From the NCBI GenBank assembly GCA_036276695.1, contig DASUOI010000035.1, positions 1 to 24,000 of the forward strand: 24,000 nt of DNA. Reading direction: 5' to 3'. Position numbers and translations under genes: made by a program. Each line of letters begins with the position of its first letter. The stretch's first letter is position 1. Positions 3,823 through 24,000 of the stretch are shown piece after piece. Source of the DNA: Candidatus Saccharimonadales bacterium (GTDB taxonomy: Bacteria > Patescibacteriota > Saccharimonadia > Saccharimonadales > 2-12-FULL-41-12). The notes beneath the pieces are model-generated. The model worked only from the letters and a program-made list of their open reading frames with translations, was not told the origin of the DNA and searched no databases.

Positions 3823-3993
3823 CTAGGAGTTACACACTTGGTAGCCAGGTACGATTTCTCTTTGAGAAGCGGACTAAGCCGTACATCTGGTACGGTGCAG
3901 GAGCATCGGAAAAGAAAATCGTGCATGGCTTCAAGAAGCCGGCAGAGTTTCGAGCTTTGCTCGAAAGTAACCCGGCTGGTGTGTAGCTCCTAG
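3823..3993. other. 171-nt imperfect palindromic, multi-hairpin element (candidate structured RNA, terminator cluster or MITE-like element)
   Basis: A 15-bp closing helix pairs 3823-3837 (ctaggagttacacac) with 3979-3993 (gtgtgtagctcctag), with one G-T pair. Inside it are perfect hairpins at 3879-3895 (ccgtac/gtacgg), 3927-3940 (ggcttc/gaagcc) and 3948-3966 (tttcgagc/gctcgaaa). A longer-range pairing joins 3851-3857 to 3916-3922. Confidence 0.6.
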
Positions 3994-5189
3994 CGGTAGA
4001 TATCTTGGAGGCCGAGGCTGCGGGAGCAAGACGGCCACGGCTGCCACCCTCTAGCCTGATAAGTCTCCCAGGCTTTTTGATCCTGTACAGCCGGAGGGGC
4101 TTCCGCGGCGTTGGAATACCCTCCATAACCGCCCCAAGTACCTATATCAAATTGATAGGCCCCGTAGTAGCCGTTGCCTGTATTGCTAGAATAGCTTCCT
4201 TCACAGCTTCTAAGGCGGGCCAGCGCACCGTCAAAACTACCGTCAAATCCGGCAGTTTTAGTGCCTTCCACGACTATGCGAGGTTTTGGTTGTACGCTGA
4301 TAACGCTCTGAATCTCGCTTCGGCTGACAACTTTGCCTTTTTTGACCTCAATCTGGTAAGTGACTATGCGTATTCCCGGCTCACCTTCATCTATAACTTT
4401 AGTAACTCCGACATCAAGCGTAGCATCATAACGGACTTCCGTAGGCGGGACTATCTGCTCCTCTTCGTTTATTATCTTTTGGCCCGGACGCAGGATGAAT
4501 ATTCTTAGATCTTTCTTTATCTTAGTTCTCAGATTTGGAACGAATTTGTCTTCAGGGTTTATGGATATGTTTTTCTCATTCAGAAGACCTTCTACGTCTT
4601 TTGCCAGCGTCCTTGTCTTTATGTCTTTTCCGTATAAGTTAATCGTGACCGGAGTTGAGCGCTTTATCAAAACCAAATCGCCTACTACTCCATCTTCAAG
4701 CAGAGCGGAATCCGGAGCGGCAAAAGCGATGTTATCTTCCGGGTAAACCTTAAATCCGGCTTTTTTTGCCAGAGCATGGGGAGTTGTCTCAGCTATCTTT
4801 GCCGTTACCGTCTCGCCATTTTCATCAACCACAGTTACAGGACGAGCATGATAAACGCTAACCTTGAAATCATCATCTAGTATGGGGCTGTTAATCCCGG
4901 GTTCTACAACATCTTCTTTCTGCAAAGTAATGCCGATTCTTCCTAACAGCTCGCCTACCGTGGAAGCTCTTGTAGGAACAGTCTTTACCTGCCCGTCTAT
5001 ATATACCTCCACTCGCTTCACGTCAGCATCTTTAAGCGTTTGGCCACCGTACAGCAAAAACCAGAAACAAAAGGTTAGTATCATAAGTATTGTCACAGCC
5101 ACCGGCACGGCTATGGGGTGCTTGAAATGCTTGCCAGTCGGCGTCTGTTCAATTGCTTGCTTGCTTGATTCAAGGTGTTTTCTAATCAT
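3990..5189 (-). CDS. RpfB-type cell-wall hydrolase: N-terminal TM anchor, 3x DUF348, G5 domain, C-terminal Rpf-like transglycosylase domain
   Basis: Three DUF348-like repeats are present ('VEVYIDGQVKTV...', 'VTVVDENGETVTAKI...', 'VTINLYGKDIKTRT...'). A G5-like segment follows ('VRYDATLDVGVTKVIDEGEPGIRIVTYQIEV'). The C-terminal 'CEGSYSSNTGNGYYGAYQFDIGTW...QPWPSC' matches the Rpf catalytic domain pattern. Confidence 0.85.
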   Translation of the reverse strand: MIRKHLESSKQAIEQTPTGKHFKHPIAVPVAVTILMILTFCFWFLLYGGQTLKDADVKRVEVYIDGQVKTVPTRASTVGELLGRIGITLQKEDVVEPGINSPILDDDFKVSVYHARPVTVVDENGETVTAKIAETTPHALAKKAGFKVYPEDNIAFAAPDSALLEDGVVGDLVLIKRSTPVTINLYGKDIKTRTLAKDVEGLLNEKNISINPEDKFVPNLRTKIKKDLRIFILRPGQKIINEEEQIVPPTEVRYDATLDVGVTKVIDEGEPGIRIVTYQIEVKKGKVVSRSEIQSVISVQPKPRIVVEGTKTAGFDGSFDGALARLRSCEGSYSSNTGNGYYGAYQFDIGTWGGYGGYSNAAEAPPAVQDQKAWETYQARGWQPWPSCSRSLGLQDIYR

Positions 5190-14196: not shown

Positions 14197-15087
14197 TTAA
14201 TAAACACCCACGTGCCAGTGACCGTCATCTGCTCCGGTATGGGCAGCGTCATCTCCGGGTCCTCTAAGTTCTAGCCCTTTATTCTTCGGCGTAACCCTGC
14301 GTATTATCGGGAACATTGACTTATTTCGGGGAGCTTTGCCATTAAATCTCCTTAAGTCTGCGGCATCTCCGTCCCAGTGATGAGAAGTCGGCACATGAGG
14401 ACCACTGGTAAAATGCCATATATTAAACTTTTTAATCTTAGAAGCTTTGTATAGGACTTTTAATAAAGTCTTGTCCAGTTTAGGACAGGCGCTTGGTTTT
14501 TGTTCCGCCTTAGAACATTGCCCTTTTCTTGCCTGATAGAGGTCTTTCTTAGCCTGCGCCGTGGCACTAATCCGTCCTTTTTTCCCTCTTCTAAGCTCAT
14601 TAATAATTTTTGTTGCCCAGTGCCTTCTAGTTCTCTTTTCGGGAACTTCAAGCAGTCTTGGACCATTATGCCTGCTCCCTCTGTCGGGACGATTGGGTTG
14701 ACTCGTATTGTCATTGCCATTGTTATTTCTCCCTCCACGATCAGGATTTGTAGACCCAGGGTCTTCAGGTTGCGAGCCTGAACTAGGTTCGTCTGTGTTT
14801 GTAGCACAGGTAGTTTCGGTGGTGGTCGTACTACCATCAGGTGAAGTTGTGGTTGTAGTAGTACACTCCATAGCAGGTGCCCCATATGCTGTGTCTGGTG
14901 TAAACACAGCTTCCCTTGCAAAATTAGCTCCTGCTAACGCAAGAACGCTGCCTGTAAGAGCAAGAGCTTTATTCAGGTTGCCAGGCAATTTCAAGTGTCT
15001 GCCTGTTGATTCCTGCGGTACTACTACAGGACTTTCAGGCGGGTTACCTGCCCGCATTTCTGGCGAAACCATTATTTCTCCACTCAT
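14197..15087 (-). CDS. Secreted or membrane-anchored LAS-family (peptidase M15-like) zinc metallopeptidase, probable peptidoglycan hydrolase
   Basis: The C-terminal domain has 'SHHWDGDAAD' (nt about 14356-14385), an exact fit to the S-x-H-x-x-G-x-A-x-D motif. It also has a terminal 'HWH' (H-x-H, nt about 14212-14220). A TM/signal anchor 'ALALTGSVLALAGA' lies upstream, followed by a Thr-rich and a basic linker. An alternative start is ATG 15072, with GGAGA 5 nt upstream. Confidence 0.7.
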   Translation of the reverse strand: MSGEIMVSPEMRAGNPPESPVVVPQESTGRHLKLPGNLNKALALTGSVLALAGANFAREAVFTPDTAYGAPAMECTTTTTTSPDGSTTTTETTCATNTDEPSSGSQPEDPGSTNPDRGGRNNNGNDNTSQPNRPDRGSRHNGPRLLEVPEKRTRRHWATKIINELRRGKKGRISATAQAKKDLYQARKGQCSKAEQKPSACPKLDKTLLKVLYKASKIKKFNIWHFTSGPHVPTSHHWDGDAADLRRFNGKAPRNKSMFPIIRRVTPKNKGLELRGPGDDAAHTGADDGHWHVGVY

Positions 15088-15120
15088 GAAATAAGCACAC
15101 TTCCTTAATTAACTTCATAT

Positions 15121-15149
15121 AAAATAACATAAACATTATAAAATGTCAA
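15121..15149 (-). promoter_or_regulatory. Sigma70-like promoter TTGACA-17-TATTTT for the LAS peptidase gene
   Basis: On the minus strand ttgaca is at 15149-15144, followed by a 17-nt spacer and tatttt at 15126-15121. AAGGAAG lies 12 nt upstream of ATG 15087. Confidence 0.45.
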
Positions 15150-15167
15150 TATTCTTGTATGGCGTTG

Positions 15168-16112
15168 TTATAGGCCTAGGCGACGAGTGATTGCAGAGTA
15201 TGCAAAGCTGGCTAGAGAACTAACACCTATGAATGTGGCGACTACTGCACCAGGACCAGTGTTAGGAAGTTCTGCAGGCTTGGTTTCCACTACTACGGGC
15301 GCGGGCTGTTCAGGCTTCGGGGGTTTAGGCTGCTTATAAATTACAGTGGCTGGCATGAAGGCTGGCTTCTCGGGTTCTTCTTCAGGCTCCTCAGGTTCAG
15401 GTTCTGGCTCTTCAATCTGCGTGCTGCCGCATGTAGCTTCAATCTTACCCTTGGCCTGGGCAATTGCTTTGGCCTTGGCACTATCTTTTAGCTGTATCTC
15501 AAGGTTATTGGTATTGCCTTGGGCTGATACCAGCATTTGGCGGGTAATCTTAATCTTGGCCACGGCTAAACCGGCTGCCTGAGCGGTTAGTTTAGAGCCG
15601 TCAGGGCAGACTATTTCTTCTTTAAGGTTTACGGAAGCTCGGGCGGTTGCGGTCATGTTCATATTATTAAAATTCCGCACCATGACGACAGGACCGTTTA
15701 CTACCTCGCCGGGAGGGTTGCCATGAGGCTTATAGGGGTTGCCGCAATTACGTCCGGTCTGGCCGCCTTTTACTTTGATCCAGCCGGTTGGAGAATTAGC
15801 GCTCCGGCAAATTTTGGCATTTGCTGGGTCATGAAACCACTTCAGGCTTCCGTCTACGCTGCGACCAGAGTTATAGCCGCCTTGTACCCATTGGCATTTT
15901 TTGTACTTGACGCCGTTATACATCTTCACATCTTCCAAAATAGTGCCTTTGTAATTAAGGCCGGACACGCTTACATCTTCAGCTGTGACAGTGTAAGGCT
16001 CATTAGCCTTTGCCCCTTGGGAGCTGAGGCTTAAAGCTAGCGCAACGGCAAGCGCAACCAGGCCTATAATTAGCCTTTTATTCATTGCATATATTTTCTT
16101 TGCTAGCTCCAT
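15168..16112 (-). CDS. LPXTG (LPNTG) cell-wall-anchored surface protein, paralogous module to the 513-aa protein
   Basis: I prefer ATG 16112, preceded by AAGGAGG (16127-16121) at 8-nt spacing, over the track's GTG at 16145. The signal peptide reads '...MNKRLIIGLVALAVALALSLSSQGAKA'. The body carries 'WIKVK...RNCG', 'CPDGSKLTAQAAGLA' and 'ATCGS', then an (EP)n linker. The C-terminus is 'LPNTGPGAVVATFIGVSSLASFAYSAITRRLGL'. Confidence 0.8.
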   Translation of the reverse strand: MELAKKIYAMNKRLIIGLVALAVALALSLSSQGAKANEPYTVTAEDVSVSGLNYKGTILEDVKMYNGVKYKKCQWVQGGYNSGRSVDGSLKWFHDPANAKICRSANSPTGWIKVKGGQTGRNCGNPYKPHGNPPGEVVNGPVVMVRNFNNMNMTATARASVNLKEEIVCPDGSKLTAQAAGLAVAKIKITRQMLVSAQGNTNNLEIQLKDSAKAKAIAQAKGKIEATCGSTQIEEPEPEPEEPEEEPEKPAFMPATVIYKQPKPPKPEQPAPVVVETKPAELPNTGPGAVVATFIGVSSLASFAYSAITRRLGL

Positions 16113-16168
16113 CTCACTGCCCTCCTTGCGGCGCCTTGTCTCCACCCAAGGTTTATAAATGTATTATT

Positions 16169-16243: not shown

Positions 16244-18430
16244 TTAGTGTTTTTTTGCAGCATGTTTCTTTTTGTCAAAACAAAAGCCGAAAGTGCTGCC
16301 TTTATTTTCCTGGCTTTCGAATAGGAGATGCCCTCCTTGAGCGTCTATAACTTTCTTAGCCATAAACAAGCCTAGCCCGGTGCCATCAGGCCTGGCTTTG
16401 CGGGCATTTGAGGCCCTATAAAACTTGGTGAACAGATGCGGGATGTCTTTTTTGGGTATACCTAAGCCGTTGTCTATTATTTTGAAGTATACGTTGCTTT
16501 TGTCTTCGGTCAGTTCCACCTTTATCGTGCCTCCGCTAGGAGTGTAATATATCGCGTTATCGGCAAAATTCATGATAACCTGGCGTATTTTTGTTTCATC
16601 CAGCGCTAAAGTCGGGAAATTCTTCGGCTTTTCATACTCAATCTCCACCTTCTTCGCTTTGGCGGTCTCTCTAAGCTGGCCGATTTCGCCTTCTATAACC
16701 TCTGCCAAATTAGTAGGAGTGGCTTCTATAATAAATTTTCCGGTCTTAAGCCTGGAAACATTTAGTAGGTCGGCGATAAGGTAAACCATCCTTTGCGAGC
16801 TAACGAAAGCCTGGTTAAGAAGTTCTCTCTGTTGTTTGCTGATTTTGCCTGCATCGCCCTCTAAAACCATGCTCATATATCCTTTCACGCTAGTTAGAGG
16901 TGTCCTTAACTGGTGCGAGGCCATGCTGATGAATTCATCTTTAGTCTCGTCAAGTTCACGGAGCTTTTTGTTGGTCCTCTGCAGTTTAGCTGTAGCGGTA
17001 TTTACTTCCGCTTGCAGTTTAGCGGCAAATCCTTGGATTTCTTCAAATCTTAAAGCGTTTTCAATAGCGATAAGAAGCTCGTCTGAAATAATGTCGATAG
17101 TATGCACGTCTTGCTTGCTGTATACATTCCCGCTTTTTTTGGTACCGATTATAAGGTGGGCTATAGGCTCGGTTGGCTGATCTTCGCTTGGTATCAGCCT
17201 GGATATTACACCTATATTCTTACTGGAAAGTAAGTTTTTCAGCTTACTGTCGCCAGAGCCAAGCTGATCTGTAATAAGGACTCTTTTGCTTGAATGGCTT
17301 AGACTATCTAATATATATTCCGTCTCTGTTTTATCCAGATCAATAAACCCCACCCCAATAATCTTGTGAGGGGTAGTGGGCGTAGAAAGTACCTCTATAA
17401 AGCAATGTTCGCTTTTTAAATTCTCCTGGATTACTTTAGTAGTGTGTCGAAGCAGAACGCCAAGCTCGATATTACCTACTATGGCCGAATTCAGCTCATC
17501 TAAAAACTCTTCCGGGTCATAAGCGTCCCTGTAGAATATGCGGTTAGTTAATTTGTCGAAGAATTTCTTAGTTGGAACATACAATAGAGCGCTTATAAGG
17601 GCGAGGATTATGTAGGAAGCTCTTTCTGCGCTGTCGATCTTGTTATCAGAAATAAAGACAGACGACAAAAGGAAGATAGCTCCCCCGTAAATTAAGCCAA
17701 TGGACCCGAGGGATAAGATGTATGCCACGCTTCTGGCTACCGCACGCTTTATGTCAAACAGATGGTGTTTCACTATCGCATAAGCTATCAACGTAGAAAA
17801 TGCCAGAGGATATATAGGCGCAAAAGGCACAAATACTTTTATATTTAGCAAAGCGGGGAGGAGAAAATTAGAAATAGGAGCTATGAATAGTAAGATTCCA
17901 CTAGCTGAAATAACGAATCGAAACTGGTCTCTTGTTAAGCCCCGGGAATGTTTGTGTTTATAAAGCAAAATACGAATGCCTATCATTATTGAAGTTATAG
18001 TATGGAGCATGAACAGTCCTATCAATGGGCTCGGATTCAGTACAATGGATGCATTCTCTTCCGTATAGCTAGTGAAATAACCCGGAAATATACCAGCCAG
18101 AAAGACTATCAAGCTAAAGAAAATATATCTATGGATTAGCTTATTAGATAAGTTCGGTCTATTGTCGGGAAATCTGTTAGCAAATAAGACGAAGAATGTA
18201 TGCTGTAATACGACAAATAATAATATAGACTCTACGGCTATAAACTCAGAATTTGGAGCAGATACTACTGTTGATAGAAAATTAGCAGTACTTAGCCCTA
18301 TTAAGGCAGTTATGAGCATAGCGAACGCCCTGTTCATAGCACTGCTCGGATTCTTAAGCAGTAATACAAGACCAATACCTATATTGGCCAAGCTAGCTGC
18401 AACTAGAATAAAAACATCAATTAAATTCAT
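16244..18430 (-). CDS. Sensor histidine kinase with a large N-terminal multi-TM (7TM-type) domain, a central GAF-like region, HisKA and HATPase_c
   Basis: About 8 hydrophobic helices occupy the first ~290 aa. The H-box is 'MASHQLRTPLTSVKGY', the N-box 'NFADNAIYYTP', G1 'IDNGLGIP' and G2 'GTGLGL'. No response regulator is present in the window. Confidence 0.9.
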   Translation of the reverse strand: MNLIDVFILVAASLANIGIGLVLLLKNPSSAMNRAFAMLITALIGLSTANFLSTVVSAPNSEFIAVESILLFVVLQHTFFVLFANRFPDNRPNLSNKLIHRYIFFSLIVFLAGIFPGYFTSYTEENASIVLNPSPLIGLFMLHTITSIMIGIRILLYKHKHSRGLTRDQFRFVISASGILLFIAPISNFLLPALLNIKVFVPFAPIYPLAFSTLIAYAIVKHHLFDIKRAVARSVAYILSLGSIGLIYGGAIFLLSSVFISDNKIDSAERASYIILALISALLYVPTKKFFDKLTNRIFYRDAYDPEEFLDELNSAIVGNIELGVLLRHTTKVIQENLKSEHCFIEVLSTPTTPHKIIGVGFIDLDKTETEYILDSLSHSSKRVLITDQLGSGDSKLKNLLSSKNIGVISRLIPSEDQPTEPIAHLIIGTKKSGNVYSKQDVHTIDIISDELLIAIENALRFEEIQGFAAKLQAEVNTATAKLQRTNKKLRELDETKDEFISMASHQLRTPLTSVKGYMSMVLEGDAGKISKQQRELLNQAFVSSQRMVYLIADLLNVSRLKTGKFIIEATPTNLAEVIEGEIGQLRETAKAKKVEIEYEKPKNFPTLALDETKIRQVIMNFADNAIYYTPSGGTIKVELTEDKSNVYFKIIDNGLGIPKKDIPHLFTKFYRASNARKARPDGTGLGLFMAKKVIDAQGGHLLFESQENKGSTFGFCFDKKKHAAKKH

Positions 18431-18481
18431 GTAAAATGTTTATGTTTTTAGCTTACACCAGTAAGGCTTAATATTGATAAT

Positions 18482-19528
18482 CTAAGATGTTAAAACTTTA
18501 CCTAACTTCTTACGTGCGCTATAAGGAAGTTTATCTTTAGGTTTGCCAATGCAAAAAAGCAGCTGCGGTATTGTATTTTTATTTTTGGGCGGGGTTAATT
18601 GTGATACTTTGTTTCTTAAATCCCCCATCTCAATCGCGGCGGCATAAATGCTTGAACTTATACCCAATCCGGTTAACTTAACCATCACTTCTTGCATCAG
18701 CATCCCGGCTTTTAGCCATCCTTCTTTAGTATCTACGGAATAAAGTATCGCTACGGTTGGGGCTGATATAAAACTCCTATAGTTGATAGCGCTCAAACGT
18801 TCGCCTATGTCTTTGCGCTTCATTACCTTTGGGATGACTACGGATTTGGGAAAATTCATACGCAGAGAATATCCATGAAGCCCGTGCTTTTTAATGCTCA
18901 AATTATGGTTAATGTATGAGCTTATTTCACGACGGAATTCTCGTGAAGCATAGGCCATACGGAGGCCTCTTGCCGTTAGCTTCGCGAGTTCTTGAATAGT
19001 AGTCTTGTCGGTGACAAGCTGAACATCAACGTCTGGACCGGAGGCGGCAATGATGTCCTTAACTTCTGAGGATTTATTTAGAATAGGCTGAAAATACCCT
19101 CTGTAATTTTGCCTGTCTTTAATATTATGAAGCAGCTTTTTATTTATCTTAGAATTTGGCTTTAAATCCTTATATATCACGGTAGATATAGGTAAGTTAT
19201 CGGTTATTTTGACTGCATGTTTTATTTGATAATCAATGCCATATGCCTGGCTGGCAAGCTCTATGTTTTTAATTAATGCTCCGAGGCTCATGTATAAGTC
19301 ACGGCCTGACGGATCAGCTTGGGGGATTTTTTTCGAGTGATCAGCAAAAATTTTTACTGTGTTGTCTTTAACTTCTATCTTCCATGGCTGGGTATTATGT
19401 GTGGATGGAGCAAGAACGCCATATTCTAGGATATGATGTATCTTCTTCTGGTCGTCCTGGTAGTGGTGTATTGACTTCTTAGATAACCTCTGGCGATGCC
19501 TCCTATGAGTGTGTTTAGGACCAATCAC
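18482..19528 (-). CDS. Tandem nitroreductase-fold (Acg / Rv1355c C-terminal type) FMN oxidoreductase-like protein
   Basis: 'GVLAPSTHNTQPW' is a nitroreductase signature. At 348 aa it is about twice a single nitroreductase domain. The GTG start at 19528 overlaps the upstream TGA stop (GTGA). The N-terminal linker 'HTHRRHRQR' is basic. Confidence 0.8.
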   Translation of the reverse strand: MIGPKHTHRRHRQRLSKKSIHHYQDDQKKIHHILEYGVLAPSTHNTQPWKIEVKDNTVKIFADHSKKIPQADPSGRDLYMSLGALIKNIELASQAYGIDYQIKHAVKITDNLPISTVIYKDLKPNSKINKKLLHNIKDRQNYRGYFQPILNKSSEVKDIIAASGPDVDVQLVTDKTTIQELAKLTARGLRMAYASREFRREISSYINHNLSIKKHGLHGYSLRMNFPKSVVIPKVMKRKDIGERLSAINYRSFISAPTVAILYSVDTKEGWLKAGMLMQEVMVKLTGLGISSSIYAAAIEMGDLRNKVSQLTPPKNKNTIPQLLFCIGKPKDKLPYSARKKLGKVLTS

Positions 19529-20637
19529 TGTTTTCCTTTCAGCAGTTCCTGGAGTATTTGTGTTCGTTCACTATTGTCAGAAAATTCGTCGGTGGCTATA
19601 TCAAATAATTTATCAAATTGTATAAAATATCGTCCTGCTTTAACAGGTTTGCCTAAAAGTATATTTTTAGCCAAATAAGCCGCGAAGCCTCCGTCTACGG
19701 CAACAGTACTATAAAGTTGCGGCCGGCCTACCAGACTTTTGCCGATTTGAGTCACCGAGCGAAGAGCGTTAGTCGGTATGTACTGAGACCCAACTAGCTG
19801 TACAGCGTACCGTTTTTCATCTTCTTTCGTAATATCTTTAGATAGAATTGTATGCTCCTGGTCACTGCTTAAAATACCGTTAAATATACGCTGGGATTCA
19901 TCTAAATCGTACCTTTCAATATCAACAAGCATATTGTCGCCAAGATTAGTAAACATGATAAGCGGTATTTTGTATTTTTTAGCATGCAGTCTTAGCTGTA
20001 CCTTCATTTTAAAATCATCTATTTCGTCAACGACTAGATCAAGATCGGGAGAAGTGAAAAAATCATCAATATTACCAGCGTCTACTCCCTCTTCAAAAAC
20101 ATGGACTTCAGCAAAAGGATCAAGTTCATATATATGACGAGCAGCCAGTTCGGCTTTAGACTTTCCGACATTAATTAGGGATTCCCTAAGCCTGTTAAGG
20201 TTGCTGGTGTCGACTTCATCGTGATCGGCTATTTTTATCTCTCTGGATATTCCGGAATAAGCCAACCCTAGAGCAATTCCCGAGCCGACCGACATGCCAG
20301 CTATGCCCACGATGCTGCCAGCAAGTTTCTGCTGTTCTTCATCTTCAATAAGCTGCTTGTTACGGTTGGTCCTGAGAGCCATCAATTCTTTGGGTCCTAA
20401 GCAATGCAGAAGTTGCTTTGACCAAGGATAGAAGACCCATGCCGTGTTTTGCGTGTCAAAGGAAGAAACAAATTGTTTTAGGGCTTGTGCATTTTCTTCG
20501 CCGGGGTTTTGGATTTTAAAGAGTTCTTTAAGCTGCTTCTCAACAATATCTACTGGTTCATTTTTCCCAAGTTTACGAAATTCATCTACATCTTCCGGTC
20601 TATAGCTGTTCGGGAAAAGAATTTTTGGCTTGTTCAT
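19525..20637 (-). CDS. ThiF/MoeB-type E1-like adenylyltransferase (Rv1355c N-terminal type)
   Basis: The glycine-rich nucleotide loop 'IVGIAGMSVGSGIALGLAYSG' and 'DHDEVDTSNLNR' are the ThiF family core. I prefer ATG 20637 (MNKPKILF...), 1 nt after the upstream TAA, over the track start at 20730, which would overlap the upstream gene by 92 nt. Confidence 0.8.
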   Translation of the reverse strand: MNKPKILFPNSYRPEDVDEFRKLGKNEPVDIVEKQLKELFKIQNPGEENAQALKQFVSSFDTQNTAWVFYPWSKQLLHCLGPKELMALRTNRNKQLIEDEEQQKLAGSIVGIAGMSVGSGIALGLAYSGISREIKIADHDEVDTSNLNRLRESLINVGKSKAELAARHIYELDPFAEVHVFEEGVDAGNIDDFFTSPDLDLVVDEIDDFKMKVQLRLHAKKYKIPLIMFTNLGDNMLVDIERYDLDESQRIFNGILSSDQEHTILSKDITKEDEKRYAVQLVGSQYIPTNALRSVTQIGKSLVGRPQLYSTVAVDGGFAAYLAKNILLGKPVKAGRYFIQFDKLFDIATDEFSDNSERTQILQELLKGKQ

Positions 20638-20638
20638 T

Positions 20639-22147
20639 TTATATAACCCACTTTTGTTTCGTCCCCGGCTTAAAGTAGTCAGGGTCTCCATTATCAAGTA
20701 AATATATGTGCGGTTGGAACTTTTCACCAATAATTTCTGCAGTTACTCTGTACTCTGAATTTTCTTCGCAAAGCTGTGTGTGAATATGCTTCTTTAGCTT
20801 GTCTTTTAGCGTTTTTTCCTCTTGGGTAGGCTTTTTTTCTATATAGATTTTAAATCTCTGGTTGCCGTTTTTATCATAGTCTACTTCCATGGTAAATTTA
20901 CCTGTTATATGTTTTTCAAATTCAACAGCCTGCAGTGCGCGGCGTACAGTATCCGGATAAATTAAAAATGCATAGTAGCTAACACTGAAGTCATCACGCT
21001 CATACACATAAACAAATGGTAAATTCCAAACAGTACTTTCTATTCCCTTTTCTTTTATAATCGCATCTATGTCATAGCCGCTTGCTCTGAGGCGCTTGTA
21101 CACCTCCTTTTTAGTAAGAACTCCTCCGTAATCTTTTAGGTCATAGCGGAACAGAGGAATCCCGCTATATGAGCTGCACAGAAGGTTCTTACCCTCTTGC
21201 TCAAAATAGAATAAACTTGGATCATATTGCGCTAAAGTCGGCTGACGTTTATCTTCCGGGAATAGAATACTCAATTTATCATCTTTTACTAATAATCTGC
21301 GGACTAAGATTGACAGAGGGGTCTCATGAGCCATGGTACCTAAATCAACTGTTCCGTAATGATTTAACGTAGAGCGCAAAGTGTTTTTGGCTCCTACTGT
21401 TTTTAGAATGTAATCCCTAAAAGTTTCACTGAAAGCCTCGGCAGAGAATATAAGACCGATATTATAATTTTTCCAATTCACTCCTTGTTCGCTACCTTGG
21501 TCTAGTATGTCTTTGAGATGAGGAGCATAGGCGGCGATGATTACTTGATCAAACTCATGACCAAGCTGCTTAACAGCATTTATTACTTCTTGCCTGTGTA
21601 TGCCCGGCGTAATTATGCTCAAAGGATATCCTTTTTCTGCGACCTGTCTGATAGATTCATAGGTGAAGACACCGCCAATCCACGCCCCCATTGGAAAAGC
21701 ATCTATATATAAAGTGGATTTATTTTGGATATTAAAATTTGCCCTAAGATAGAGTTCTGTTGTTATAGCAAGAAATTTATCCTGCGTATCCGTCCTTGGA
21801 AAATAATACGGCTCCCCTGTCGAGCCCGATGTGGTACTGACAACCCAGCTTTGTTCGGCAAACTTACCTTCCCAGCATAAATCAGGACGGGAATAAGCTC
21901 TTAAATAATTATTCTTGTCTAATGCCGGGACGGAAGAGAAGTCTTTAAAGCCCTTTATGTCAGCAGTGTTAATTCCTTGTTTTTTTAAGAATTTTTTATA
22001 GGCCGGAACATCGCGCGCCATAGAGTGAAACAGGCGAAGAGCCCTCTTTTGACCGCTCTTGATCCAGTGTTCTTCTTTTTTTGATTGCAGGTTATTGTGT
22101 AAAACTTCTGCATTCTTGTAGCCGCGCGGCAGTGATAATTGAGTCAT
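20639..22147 (-). CDS. PaaK / coenzyme-F390-synthetase-like adenylate-forming ligase (ANL superfamily)
   Basis: 'STTSGSTGEPYYF' is a P-loop-like AMP-binding motif. 'PLFRYDLKDYG' corresponds to the PaaK 'RYRTxD' hinge. 502 aa. Confidence 0.75.
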   Translation of the reverse strand: MTQLSLPRGYKNAEVLHNNLQSKKEEHWIKSGQKRALRLFHSMARDVPAYKKFLKKQGINTADIKGFKDFSSVPALDKNNYLRAYSRPDLCWEGKFAEQSWVVSTTSGSTGEPYYFPRTDTQDKFLAITTELYLRANFNIQNKSTLYIDAFPMGAWIGGVFTYESIRQVAEKGYPLSIITPGIHRQEVINAVKQLGHEFDQVIIAAYAPHLKDILDQGSEQGVNWKNYNIGLIFSAEAFSETFRDYILKTVGAKNTLRSTLNHYGTVDLGTMAHETPLSILVRRLLVKDDKLSILFPEDKRQPTLAQYDPSLFYFEQEGKNLLCSSYSGIPLFRYDLKDYGGVLTKKEVYKRLRASGYDIDAIIKEKGIESTVWNLPFVYVYERDDFSVSYYAFLIYPDTVRRALQAVEFEKHITGKFTMEVDYDKNGNQRFKIYIEKKPTQEEKTLKDKLKKHIHTQLCEENSEYRVTAEIIGEKFQPHIYLLDNGDPDYFKPGTKQKWVI

Positions 22148-22208
22148 GTTTTACCTTTTCTTATCAGTAATTTTATCATCTCGGCACATTGGACCTAATT
22201 AATGTTTA

Positions 22209-23438
22209 TTAAAACGACAATAGCTCTACTCCATCTGGTATGTCTGATTTCTCCATGGCCTTGTTAATGATTTGTCCCAGTACTGGTCCAATAGGACGCT
22301 TTTCAGGCCGCTCCGCCACTTCTTTATTTAGAAATTCACCGTGCTCATTAGCATAATCAAGCACAAGTTCAGCCAATGCGATTTTATACTTTTCATATCC
22401 TAAAAAGGCTTCTTGGATGTCTCCGTTACATCCGATTAGGAATCTTGCTAAGACATCTGCGCTATATATGGCAGTATTGGCTCCAAACCCAGCCCAAGGA
22501 GGCGATGCGCTGCCAGCATCCCCAACTACAATGCATTTATCGCCTAAAATATAATTGGTTATAGATTTATAGTGAAAATGCCCCAATTTTCTACCTACTA
22601 CCTGATTGGCAAGGTCTGGTTCAAGCGACAAAACTTCCGGGAAATCCTGTTTAAGCCGCTCAATTGCCTGATCGGGCATTGAAAATGGACTCTCGTCTAT
22701 TACGTCTTTGTACGGGGAAATCAGCAAAGTAGCTATGGTGCCGTCTTTATTAGGCATGCCTATGGCCACTGATTCACTTCCCGCTTTATGCCAAAAATGC
22801 ATATGGTGAGACGACAAACCCTTTGCGGCTTTTTGTCCCAGCATAACAGATATGTAGCTTAAAGGATCTTGCTTTTTACCCAGCGAGCCACCGGGCAGTG
22901 CAGTAATAAATACGTCCGATAAACTATGTATACCGTCAGCTAGTACGATAACGTCTGCCTTGAGCTCCTTTTTTATAGCATCTTTGTTTTCGCATACGAC
23001 TTTACCTAAATTCGGTTCAACTTCTACTACTTTAGTATGGAAATGAATTTTCACACCTTGGTCTTCAACTATATTGACCAAGTTCTGGCGAAGAACAGGT
23101 CGGGGGACACTAGTTAGTATTGATTTGTCTCCTTCTCCGTATTCAGTGTATTTTATAGCACCGGTGTTTTGAAAATTATGAATCGCACGACCAATTACAT
23201 CTGTACCGCCTTGCCAAGCACGCTCCTCCCCTAAGATTTTTCTGCCGACTTCATTTAAGGTTAAATTAAAAGATCTATCAGTATATCCGGGGTTTAGGCC
23301 ATGCGGACTACCAGCCCTCTCTATTACCATGACATCTGCTCCGTTTAGGCTGGCAGCTTTTGCGAAAGTTAGCCCTCCCGGCCCAGCCCCAACGACAATT
23401 ATCTTCAGGTCCTTAAGTAAATTACCCGAGCTATACAT
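22209..23438 (-). CDS. FAD-dependent aromatic-ring monooxygenase (UbiH / kynurenine-3-monooxygenase-like, group A flavoprotein)
   Basis: GxGxxG 'IIVVGAGPGGLTFA...VMVIER', the 'VLADGIHS' DG motif, and the 'VVGDAGSASPPWAGFGANTAIYSA' GD motif. Confidence 0.85.
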   Translation of the reverse strand: MYSSGNLLKDLKIIVVGAGPGGLTFAKAASLNGADVMVIERAGSPHGLNPGYTDRSFNLTLNEVGRKILGEERAWQGGTDVIGRAIHNFQNTGAIKYTEYGEGDKSILTSVPRPVLRQNLVNIVEDQGVKIHFHTKVVEVEPNLGKVVCENKDAIKKELKADVIVLADGIHSLSDVFITALPGGSLGKKQDPLSYISVMLGQKAAKGLSSHHMHFWHKAGSESVAIGMPNKDGTIATLLISPYKDVIDESPFSMPDQAIERLKQDFPEVLSLEPDLANQVVGRKLGHFHYKSITNYILGDKCIVVGDAGSASPPWAGFGANTAIYSADVLARFLIGCNGDIQEAFLGYEKYKIALAELVLDYANEHGEFLNKEVAERPEKRPIGPVLGQIINKAMEKSDIPDGVELLSF

Positions 23439-23483
23439 ATAAATTTTTGTTTTCTAGCATTCAGCTGTGTTAGTAATGCAATT

Positions 23484-23492
23484 ATTATATCA
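23484..23492 (-). promoter_or_regulatory. Possible extended -10 (TGaTATAAT) for the monooxygenase operon
   Basis: The minus strand reads tgatataat, about 45 nt upstream of ATG 23438. No convincing -35 or SD was seen. Confidence 0.3.
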
Positions 23493-23554
23493 AATGTGCA
23501 AAAAACCCAGTTATGCTTTACAATAACCTTTGTACATCCCGAAATAAAACAAAA

Positions 23555-24000
23555 ATGTCATTTATAGCGCAAAGATTAGATTATTTTGATAGTAGTGATT
23601 TCCGAAAGGCTGTTGAAAAACAGTCTCTTCTTGCTCATCCAATTGATTTAAGCATCGGCATACCTGAGGAGCTGACTGCCGAGCACGTAAAGGCTGCTGC
23701 TATACAGGCAATCAATGAAGATAAAACTATCTACACGCCATCAAACGGCATTCCAGAGCTTCGAAAAATCTTAGCTAAAAAGCTAAGGGAAGAAAACTAC
23801 ATCCCCTGCGATGAAAATACCGTAACCATAGTACCGGGCCTTACTACAGGACAATTGCTTGTTTATTTGGCCATTATAGACCCCGGGGACGAAGTTGTTG
23901 TATTTGACCCTTATTACCCACCTTACCCTCACCTGGCAACTACAGCGGGCGCTAGGGTCGTGTACGCATCCACTCTGCCAACATTCCAGCCGGATCTTGA
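23555..24000 (+). CDS. Class I/II PLP-dependent aminotransferase (AspC-like), 5' part (runs off the window end)
   Basis: ATG 23555 opens a frame to the window end. It reads 'MSFIAQRLDYFDSSDFRKAVEK...IDLSIGIPE...YTPSNGIPELRKILAKKL...TIVPGLTTGQLLVYLAIIDPGDEVVVFDPYYPPY', typical of the N-terminal third of fold-type I aminotransferases. It is absent from the ORF track because it is unterminated. Confidence 0.8.
   Translation, partial: MSFIAQRLDYFDSSDFRKAVEKQSLLAHPIDLSIGIPEELTAEHVKAAAIQAINEDKTIYTPSNGIPELRKILAKKLREENYIPCDENTVTIVPGLTTGQLLVYLAIIDPGDEVVVFDPYYPPYPHLATTAGARVVYASTLPTFQPDL

Follow-up and report, generated by a model that had tools for sequence, protein, structure and literature searches.

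What is made by a bacterial operon in which two adenylating enzymes of different families stand between two flavoenzymes? The question is raised by a stretch of 24,000 nucleotides from a Candidatus Saccharimonadales bacterium (assembly GCA_036276695.1, contig DASUOI010000035.1, positions 1 to 24,000), hereafter called the window. Four consecutive open reading frames (ORFs), all on the minus strand, encode a group-A flavin monooxygenase (FMO), a divergent PaaK-fold adenylate-forming (ANL) ligase, a ThiF-like ATP-dependent cyclase (ThiF) and a tandem nitroreductase-fold flavin-dependent oxidase (FDO). By homology, ThiF and the FDO are shown to correspond to a split oxazolone synthetase of the TrzS/OxzB/TyzB-TyzC kind. 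The module as a whole may constitute an ATP-only, CoA-independent route to an oxazolone or dehydro-amino acid derived from an N-acyl amino acid, perhaps a signal; for this reading, whose chemistry is taken from homology and gene context, we see about as much chance of being right as of being wrong.

The Operon and Its Junctions

The genes and the region from which they are read are the following:

23555..24000, plus strand: 5′ part of a class I/II pyridoxal phosphate-dependent aminotransferase, 148 codons, running off the window (PF00155, 6.8e-18)
23439..23554, no strand: divergent intergenic (promoter) region of 116 nt, between the aminotransferase-receiver and the FMO-ligase-ThiF-FDO-kinase units
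23438..22209, minus strand: group-A FMO, kynurenine-3-monooxygenase-like, 409 aa (PF01494, 1.4e-17)
22147..20639, minus strand: divergent PaaK-fold ANL ligase, 502 aa (fold model, motifs)
20637..19525, minus strand: ThiF-like ATP-dependent cyclase, 370 aa from ATG (NF005901, 5.8e-86)
19528..18482, minus strand: tandem nitroreductase-fold FDO, 348 aa, GTG start (NF047509, 7e-54)
18430..16244, minus strand: seven-transmembrane (7TM)-receptor histidine kinase, 728 aa (PF16927 HisKA_7TM, PF00512, PF02518)

The junctions, as read from the sequence, are short. The FMO and ligase genes are separated by 61 nt containing a Shine-Dalgarno-like AAAAGG, the ligase and ThiF genes by a single nucleotide (TAA-a-ATG), and the ThiF stop and the FDO start overlap as GTGA. 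For ThiF, a TTG start in the ORF list would extend the protein to 401 aa, but the alignment of homologues favors the ATG start (370 aa). Past the FDO gene, the same strand continues after 51 nt with the kinase gene, and the interval contains no terminator-like site. The terminator scan likewise found no such site between the operon genes, and promoter and terminator scans were otherwise at background level. An earlier note, made from the letters of this DNA and its ORFs, had proposed the gene order, the tight coupling and the four domain assignments, and all of these hold in the ORFs, junctions and profile searches. The four genes are a real operon; the arrangement is not due to chance, because the same layout is found again in three other contigs (L006, L094, and L095) and its core in 46 of 46 related loci.

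On the other side of the intergenic region, the aminotransferase is 387 aa long on the source contig and is followed by a gene for a stand-alone receiver of 121 aa (Response_reg). Its best NCBIfam matches are the archaeal AspAT and GntC, all under cutoff. The region 23439-23554 is 88% identical to its counterpart in L006, the flanking proteins being 79-92% identical, and holds a TTGCA-N20-TTGCA arrangement surrounding the extended −10-like TGATATAAT. The repeats around this element may be a regulator site, though the linked receiver carries no DNA-binding domain. No ORF of at least 20 aa lies wholly inside 23439-23554 or the other gap in which the earlier note had proposed to look for a small peptide gene (22148-22208). 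The G+C content is 0.39-0.41 over 17001-22000, that is, from the kinase to the ligase, versus 0.43-0.48 in most of the window.

ThiF and the FDO Match a Split Oxazolone Synthetase

ThiF belongs to PF00899 (1.7e-23) and matches the NCBIfam model NF005901 ("Rv1355c family") over profile positions 12-354 of 722 with 289 bits (5.8e-86), the next-best ThiF model giving 72 bits (2.9e-20). The FDO matches the other half of the same profile (positions 362-645, 1.5e-21) as well as the Acg-family model NF047509 (7e-54), and its closest solved relative is Acg (PDB 2ymv, 2.6e-11). In a BLASTP comparison with a PGAP-annotated Rv1355c-family protein of Rhodococcus, ThiF is 36% identical over 277 aa (4e-56) and the FDO 24% (4e-11). 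Among fused proteins from Patescibacteria, the FDO is 27% identical over 322 aa to the FDO half of a ThiF-FDO fusion from Roizmanbacteria. Together the two proteins amount to 370 + 348 = 718 aa and align collinearly with fused proteins of 708-761 aa, namely PGAP-annotated Rv1355c-family members (Rhodococcus, Mycobacterium plasmids) and Patescibacteria ThiF-FDO fusions of 718-761 aa. A basic N-terminal stretch of the FDO lines up with the interdomain linker of the fused forms. The suggestion of the earlier note that the two genes are a split Rv1355c-family protein is thus confirmed by the NF005901 matches and the collinear alignment.

In the alignment, which includes two annotated family members, the elements of the ThiF ATP site (the glycine loop, D..SNLNR, and E205-x-D207) are invariant, and D207 is likely the counterpart of D217 in TrzS. 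The translation shows a single Cys and no CxxC zinc site in ThiF. TcdA and MccB are among its solved relatives, TcdA being the nearest.

The function of the Rv1355c family, given as unknown in the earlier note, has since been described: Rv1355c has been identified as TrzS, a synthetase of N-acyl tryptazolones that requires ATP and O2 and converts the N-acyl tryptophan made by TrzA/Rv1356c by cyclisation followed by desaturation (PMC12856293). The split pair TyzB (ThiF) and TyzC (FDO) of Mycobacterium tuberculosis, working with TyzA, performs the same chemistry (PMC10404671). OxzB of Pseudoalteromonas rubra is a ThiF-nitroreductase di-domain protein and an ATP-dependent oxazolone synthetase acting on the N-acyl tyrosine produced by the acyltransferase OxzA (de Rond, Asay and Moore; bioRxiv 10.1101/2020.06.11.147165). 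Split ThiF and nitroreductase genes beside N-acyl amino acid synthases are also found in Planctomycetota, Thalassotalea and Massilia, with N-acyl dehydrotyrosines as products (PMC12479983). In these characterised systems, an N-acyl amino acid is first adenylated by ThiF at its alpha-carboxylate, which allows its amide oxygen to form the 5(4H)-oxazolone ring; a C-alpha/C-beta double bond is then introduced by the FMN oxidase with O2.

The window pair resembles these systems to different degrees. With TrzS it shares the order ThiF then FDO, the total length (718 aa against a 722-position profile) and the ATP-site motifs, and fused ThiF-FDO forms occur in the same Patescibacteria module. In mycolic-acid bacteria trzAS adjoins cyclic di-GMP genes, and the window module likewise adjoins signaling genes. 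On the other hand, the window proteins are split (GTGA overlap), identity in the FDO half reaches only 24%, and the phylum is another one. A TrzA-type acyltransferase is missing; the genes attached instead encode an FMO, a PaaK-fold ligase, a two-component pair and either an aminotransferase or a dehydrogenase. The TyzA/B/C and NasY clusters, which yield tyrazolones or ring-opened N-acyl dehydrotyrosines (PMC10404671, PMC12479983), have separate ThiF and nitroreductase-superfamily genes in a tightly packed operon, as in the window; all of them, however, include an N-acyl amino acid synthase, and none has an adenylate-forming ligase or a kinase. OxzB is comparable in combining ThiF and nitroreductase parts and in using ATP on a small-molecule substrate, an N-acyl amino acid, but it is of the FDO-A8 subcluster, is fed by the acyl-CoA-dependent OxzA, and is reported in Proteobacteria only. 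The ThiF domain of the window belongs to the TrzS/TyzB/OxzB clade, and the FDO gene overlaps its stop codon. What looks new is the context: a module fed by a ligase, linked to an aminotransferase or dehydrogenase, coupled to a kinase and distributed throughout Patescibacteria. No description of such a ligase-fed, kinase-coupled module was found in the searchable literature.

The Ligase

No Pfam family is above threshold for the ligase. Its weak profile matches are to PaaK, FlxY and F390 synthetase models (PaaK/FlxY 2e-8 to 6e-8, far under the cutoffs), and the PaaK equivalog models TIGR02155 and NF041878 score 16 bits (cutoff 646) and 33 bits (cutoff 700), respectively. A profile built from the ligase alignment gave weak N-terminal matches to PaaK-type ligases among the PDB sequences, with E of 1e-4 at best. 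Sequence by itself does not place the ligase.

The AlphaFold (AF2) model of the protein (pLDDT 80.8) has a clear PaaK-type ANL fold. The top Foldseek matches are BT_0428, PaaK1, 2-hydroxyisobutyryl-CoA ligase (HCL), and the CoA-independent ClxA, followed by GH3 enzymes; E is 1.3e-17 to 4r1l and 7.6e-17 to 2y27. The structures of GH3.5 and GH3.6 give TM-scores of 0.51-0.54, similar to those of the top matches, with a weaker E of about 3e-6. In the Pfam GH3 models, only GH3_C responds (E 0.03, 15.5 bits vs. a cutoff of 23.6). Judged from the model, the likeness to GH3 is a resemblance of fold, not membership.

With the PaaK-type enzymes (PaaK1, BT_0428, HCL, ClxA) the window ligase shares the two-domain fold (Foldseek E 1e-17 to 1e-10, TM-score about 0.5-0.6), the P-loop, YGT(V)D and the C-terminal catalytic lysine. 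Among 33 ligase homologues the P-loop STTSGSTGxP, YGTVD and the C-terminal GTK497QKW are invariant. It differs in that the sequence similarity to PaaK is limited to the N-terminal third, the protein is ~70 residues longer, and no paa genes are nearby. An exhaustive profile search (E<=1e-30) defined a family of 669 clusters at 50% identity, a group of its own apart from the PaaK-type enzymes, which JGI and NCBI label "phenylacetate-CoA ligase family."

The window ligase itself is 100% identical to an NCBI protein from a metagenome-assembled genome. A ligase homologue with 52-53% identity (P0230) is assigned by NCBI to a metagenome-assembled genome of Candidatus Jordarchaeaceae, an Asgard archaeon, which reflects a binning artefact or else a transfer.

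A Module Conserved in Patescibacteria

Related loci were taken from one genome scan with the ligase protein (L006), from one metagenome scan with the ligase alignment and two peptide patterns (80 loci), and from several exact-protein look-ups. The sample is therefore one biased set of metagenome contigs plus nine targeted look-ups. After deduplication, 46 loci remained in which the ligase was flanked by 2.5 kb or more on either side. Genes were called, crudely, as the longest nonoverlapping ORFs, and a family was counted as present when a member lay within 3.5 kb of the ligase, with the following result:

ThiF of the window type, before or after the ligase: 46/46 loci
homologous histidine kinase: 42/46 loci
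FDO, in any orientation or fused to ThiF: 36/46 loci
receiver: 25/46 loci
class I aminotransferase: 20/46 loci
Glu/Leu/Phe/Val-family dehydrogenase of ~350 aa: 20/46 loci
aminotransferase and dehydrogenase together: 0/46 loci
alpha/beta hydrolase, after the FDO or ThiF gene: 4/46 loci

The linkage of ligase and ThiF is invariant, so that the neighborhood survey suggested in the earlier note came out in favor of a conserved system. The kinase is of the 7TM type in all loci checked by Pfam and is directly 3′ in most. The aminotransferase, which the note had rightly regarded as attached to the system, divergently adjoins the ligase operon in each of the 20 loci where it is present. In other loci it is replaced by the dehydrogenase, which was confirmed by Pfam; the best NCBIfam model of the latter is the tryptophan dehydrogenase ScyB, under cutoff. 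This replacement, the 7TM kinase and stand-alone receiver as parts of the module, the distribution over Patescibacteria and the restriction of the FMO to a subclade go beyond what had been noted before.

Natural fusions are independent evidence that dehydrogenase, ligase and ThiF act on one pathway. In detail, they include ligase-ThiF (P0242, 863 aa), ThiF-ligase (P0335, 880 aa), dehydrogenase-ligase (P0270, 847 aa), and dehydrogenase-ligase-ThiF (P0300, 1242 aa) proteins, and ThiF-FDO fusions directly after the ligase are seen in L016, L022, L042 and L089. The module was found in Saccharimonadales, Pacebacteria, Roizmanbacteria and Doudnabacteria. For instance, the gene order in a locus from Roizmanbacteria is receiver / dehydrogenase > ligase > ThiF-FDO > hydrolase > 7TM kinase > receiver; start and stop codons overlap at four of its five junctions, and the kinase gene shares 4 nt with the receiver gene behind it. 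In Doudnabacteria, one locus has the order FDO > dehydrogenase > ligase > ThiF > 7TM kinase.

The alpha/beta hydrolase (~290-304 aa, cluster c16) is located between FDO, ThiF-FDO or ThiF and the kinase in L033, L042/L089, L053 and L079. No other recurrent gene family was found near the ligase among 77 loci.

ThiF in the loci without a nearby FDO (L002, L004, L012, L013, L018, L026, and L031) is 31-41% identical to that of the window. In the FDO-bearing loci of Saccharimonadales it is 50-57% identical in five cases and 31-35% in two, which hints at two ThiF subtypes inside the module.

The FMO has a narrower distribution. Its closest solved relatives are kynurenine 3-monooxygenases (62 bits, 4e-16), no NCBIfam model reaches its cutoff, and the protein is by these matches a group-A flavin monooxygenase. 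The family is small, with 37 proteins at E<=1e-10. In the metagenome sample it appeared on the window contig and in L006 only, which a search with the FMO as query showed to be an effect of sampling: homologues at least 50% identical head the same module in L006, L094, and L095. The order is FMO > ligase > ThiF > FDO > kinase in L094, and receiver < aminotransferase / FMO > ThiF > ligase, with a convergent FDO and a kinase, in L095. Seven more FMO matches lie on contigs exactly equal in size to those of the closest ligase homologues, and one homologue (42% identity) stands in an unrelated context. The recurrence of the monooxygenase with the module, a point that the earlier note had proposed to survey, is real in these three loci and is confined to a subclade. 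The four-gene layout is kept in the subclade of the window, and the FMO is a lineage-specific accessory.

A lineage-specific, horizontally acquired cluster was also considered and rejected, since the core is phylum-wide and only the FMO is lineage-specific.

The described systems all carry an N-acyltransferase neighbor, whereas the window and the 46 related loci are without one. At the locus itself there is no neighboring N-acyl amino acid synthase of the OxzA/TyzA/TrzA/NasY kind; no acyltransferase is encoded in the window, and no acyltransferase family recurs in the 77 loci. A TrzA-like query found nothing in the six-frame translations of all loci, a weak negative as the query, a hypothetical gene beside a Rhodococcus Rv1355c-family gene, itself has no Pfam family. 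In Streptomyces/Kitasatospora plasmids (L092:5830-7628 and L093:5182-8066), a ThiF of the Rv1355c-type N-terminal half occurs in 13-kb stretches with no annotated nitroreductase, and its gene overlaps a GNAT or a KASIII gene instead. Because these Actinomycetota relatives pair with GNAT or KASIII, the acylating partner of the ThiF clade appears exchangeable.

A Possible CoA-Independent Route to Oxazolones

The reading of the module as an ATP-only route assigns a step to each gene. The ligase would take the place of the acyl-CoA- or acyl carrier protein-dependent N-acyltransferase of the described systems: as in GH3 and other amide-forming ANL enzymes, it would adenylate a carboxylic acid and join it to an amino acid at the amino group, giving an N-acyl amino acid. 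By homology, ThiF would then adenylate the alpha-carboxylate of this compound, with ring closure to a 5(4H)-oxazolone, and the FDO would introduce the C-alpha/C-beta double bond with FMN and O2. The aminotransferase, or elsewhere the Leu/Phe/Trp-type dehydrogenase, would interconvert an amino acid and a 2-oxo acid building block. That this step feeds the ligase is indicated by the alternation of the two enzymes and by the dehydrogenase-ligase fusion.

In vivo, dehydrogenases of the Leu/Phe/Trp type mostly work in the direction of the 2-oxo acid, and these bacteria take up amino acids from outside. For both reasons the simplest assumption is that a 2-oxo acid derived from an imported amino acid serves as acyl donor, although the reverse direction is possible; amino acids, ATP and O2 would then suffice for the whole route. 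Within its subclade, the FMO, resembling kynurenine 3-monooxygenase, would hydroxylate an aromatic ring of the substrate or the product. Where an alpha/beta hydrolase is present, it could hydrolyse the oxazolone to the ring-opened N-acyl dehydro-amino acid.

The kinase in the enzyme operon and the receiver with the aminotransferase suggest, as the weakest step of the scheme, either a signaling role of the product or sensory control over its formation. In agr/com-type cassettes, signal-biosynthesis genes are cotranscribed with a polytopic histidine kinase. The window module resembles them, as a functional analogy only, in combining enzymes and a multipass membrane kinase in one operon with a receiver nearby; it differs in that the proposed signal would be a small molecule instead of a peptide and that the receiver has no DNA-binding domain. 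The ligase-ThiF-FDO enzymes together with the 7TM kinase and receiver might even be a synthase-receptor cassette, by which Patescibacteria make and themselves sense a diffusible amino-acid-derived oxazolone or dehydro-N-acyl amino acid. We regard this extension as rather doubtful. If it were true, it would mean phylum-wide small-molecule communication, possibly between episymbiont and host, based on an undescribed CoA-independent, all-adenylation route.

Enzymatic synthesis of oxazolones from N-acyl amino acids was first reported in 2020-2021, and here homologues of the synthetases sit in a strongly conserved module of the candidate phyla radiation, whose minimal genomes hold few nonessential genes. 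Should the chemistry proposed above be correct, N-acyl amino acids and azlactones would be accessible without CoA, the purpose of oxazolones could be tested through the partner kinase encoded next door, and about 670 clusters now called "phenylacetate-CoA ligase" or "hypothetical" would gain a function. The activation of an amino-acid-derived carboxylate in an undescribed pathway, as formulated in the earlier note, is accordingly retained in part: the pathway is conserved and real, while half of it belongs to a known kind of enzyme.

Several observations weigh against the ATP-only route or limit it. The split halves score 289.3 + 76.4 bits with NF005901 and together remain below the equivalog cutoff of 476 bits, for which reason the locus should be filed as a homologue of the Rv1355c-type kind and not as an Rv1355c equivalog. 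The FDO is just below the Acg-family cutoff (183 vs. 199 bits), and the FDO residues R540 and Q651 of TrzS (Mycobacterium smegmatis numbering) have no confident mapping onto it. The ligase is the most conserved gene of the module, being 48-60% identical between Patescibacteria lineages and classes; this is unusual for secondary metabolism, and it could have a housekeeping role. Its modeled PaaK-type fold would fit CoA or an amine as acceptor alike, and the best structural matches are CoA ligases. As 10 of the 46 loci are without a nearby FDO, which may be encoded elsewhere, the invariant core is ligase plus ThiF, and a desaturated oxazolone is not necessarily what this core makes. Moreover, the direction in which the aminotransferase or dehydrogenase would work, which acid and which amino acid are used, and the connection with signaling are all inferred.

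Alternative Explanations

The nearest solved folds of the ligase, that is, the CoA ligases BT_0428, PaaK1 and 2-hydroxyisobutyryl-CoA ligase, and its family name at JGI and NCBI would agree with an ordinary acyl- or aryl-acetate-CoA ligase, in which case an N-acyl amino acid synthase encoded elsewhere would feed ThiF and the FDO. In all described systems, however, the clustered gene is the acyltransferase itself. Here no acyltransferase recurs in the 77 loci, and it is the ligase that always adjoins ThiF and is sometimes fused to it. The PaaK equivalog models, at 16-33 bits against cutoffs of 646-700, also argue against it. The very reduced lipid and cofactor metabolism expected of these organisms would also speak against it. 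An unlinked acyltransferase is therefore an unlikely solution.

Alternatively, the ligase could join a 2-oxo acid or an amino acid to a second amino acid, and ThiF would activate the C-terminal carboxylate for ring closure by some other nucleophile in place of the amide oxygen, to a ring of, for example, the diketopiperazine, morpholinedione or pyrazinone type, with the FDO in a role like that of AlbA, the oxidase of cyclic dipeptides. The dehydrogenase-ligase-ThiF fusion and the alternation of aminotransferase and dehydrogenase, which tie the 2-oxo acid/amino acid step to the ligase, would suit such a product. AlbA, of the nitroreductase family, desaturates side chains in cyclodipeptides, and 10 of the 46 loci have no FDO nearby. 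Nevertheless, ThiF is specifically of the oxazolone-forming clade and the FDO of the Acg/TrzS type; TcdA, the nearest solved relative of ThiF, cyclises an N-carbamoyl amino acid via the carbonyl oxygen, and no precedent is known for the ThiF reaction required. We consider a different heterocycle improbable.

A third possibility is that a macromolecule is modified: the C-terminus of a protein, a nucleoside of tRNA or a RiPP-like peptide (ribosomally synthesized and post-translationally modified), in the manner of MccB, PaaA, the E1 enzymes and TcdA. Peptides, proteins or tRNA are indeed the substrates of most characterised ThiF-like enzymes, the solved relatives include TcdA and MccB, and conservation throughout the phylum would suit a housekeeping modification. 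Against this stands the large preference of the hidden Markov models for the small-molecule clade. Furthermore, ThiF has no CxxC and no catalytic Cys, and no ThiS/MoaD-like partner is present, nor does any small ubiquitin-like gene of this kind recur in the surveyed loci. There is also no match to a YcaO or SagB-type model, no intergenic ORF of at least 20 aa and no recurrent small gene in the 77 loci. Modification of a macromolecule is thus a very improbable function.

The earlier note had compared the pair of E1-like enzyme and nitroreductase with azoline and RiPP maturation, while remarking that YcaO and a precursor peptide were missing. The remark was correct; the analogy is not needed, because the ThiF + FDO family has a known oxazolone chemistry, and nothing at the locus supports it. 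Maturation of a thiazole/oxazole-modified microcin (TOMM) or other RiPP was rejected, as YcaO, a SagB model match and a precursor ORF are all absent from the locus and none of them recurs in the 77 loci.

Finally, a chance neighborhood of MoeB/ThiF sulfur-carrier activation and PaaK phenylacetate catabolism, suggested by the generic family names only, can be dismissed as having hardly any likelihood: the MoeB, ThiF and PaaK equivalog models are all far below cutoff, as the profile searches called for in the earlier note showed, partner genes of the paa, moa or thi kind are absent from both the window and the related loci, and the linkage is kept in 46/46 loci and fixed by gene fusions, so that plain MoeB or PaaK roles are refuted within the sequence evidence.

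Other Genes of the Window and of Related Contigs

The remaining genes of the window are of the housekeeping kind (KsgA, UvrD/PcrA, TIM, PGK, a DNA glycosylase, an Rpf-like transglycosylase and tRNA-Glu). Rfam and tRNA scans of the window returned tRNA-Glu only, which lies far from the locus. At 3990-5189 (minus strand), an RpfB-like protein (DUF348, G5, transglycosylase-like) is encoded in this Saccharibacteria genome. Two adjacent secreted or surface proteins with no Pfam family are located at 14197-16145 (minus strand); one has Thr/Ser-rich low-complexity runs, and the second ends with LPNTG and a hydrophobic tail, that is, a sortase signal.

In one Saccharimonadales contig, a very large gene of 2333 aa (RHS repeat, PA14, Tox-REase-7 toxin domain) is placed directly 3′ of the module kinase (L095:15418-17269).

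Just past the receiver, related Saccharimonadales loci carry a Mur ligase together with either a MurL-type epimerase (PF26299/PF26298) or an Asp/Glu racemase of 215 aa. This neighborhood was seen at L095:3847-6428, L008, L010, L011 and L061 (cluster c12 beside the Mur ligase), and on the contig of the window (L001:2-823) the next gene is also a Mur ligase. The epimerase and the racemase look like two alternative supplies of D-Glu for peptidoglycan, alternating among close relatives.

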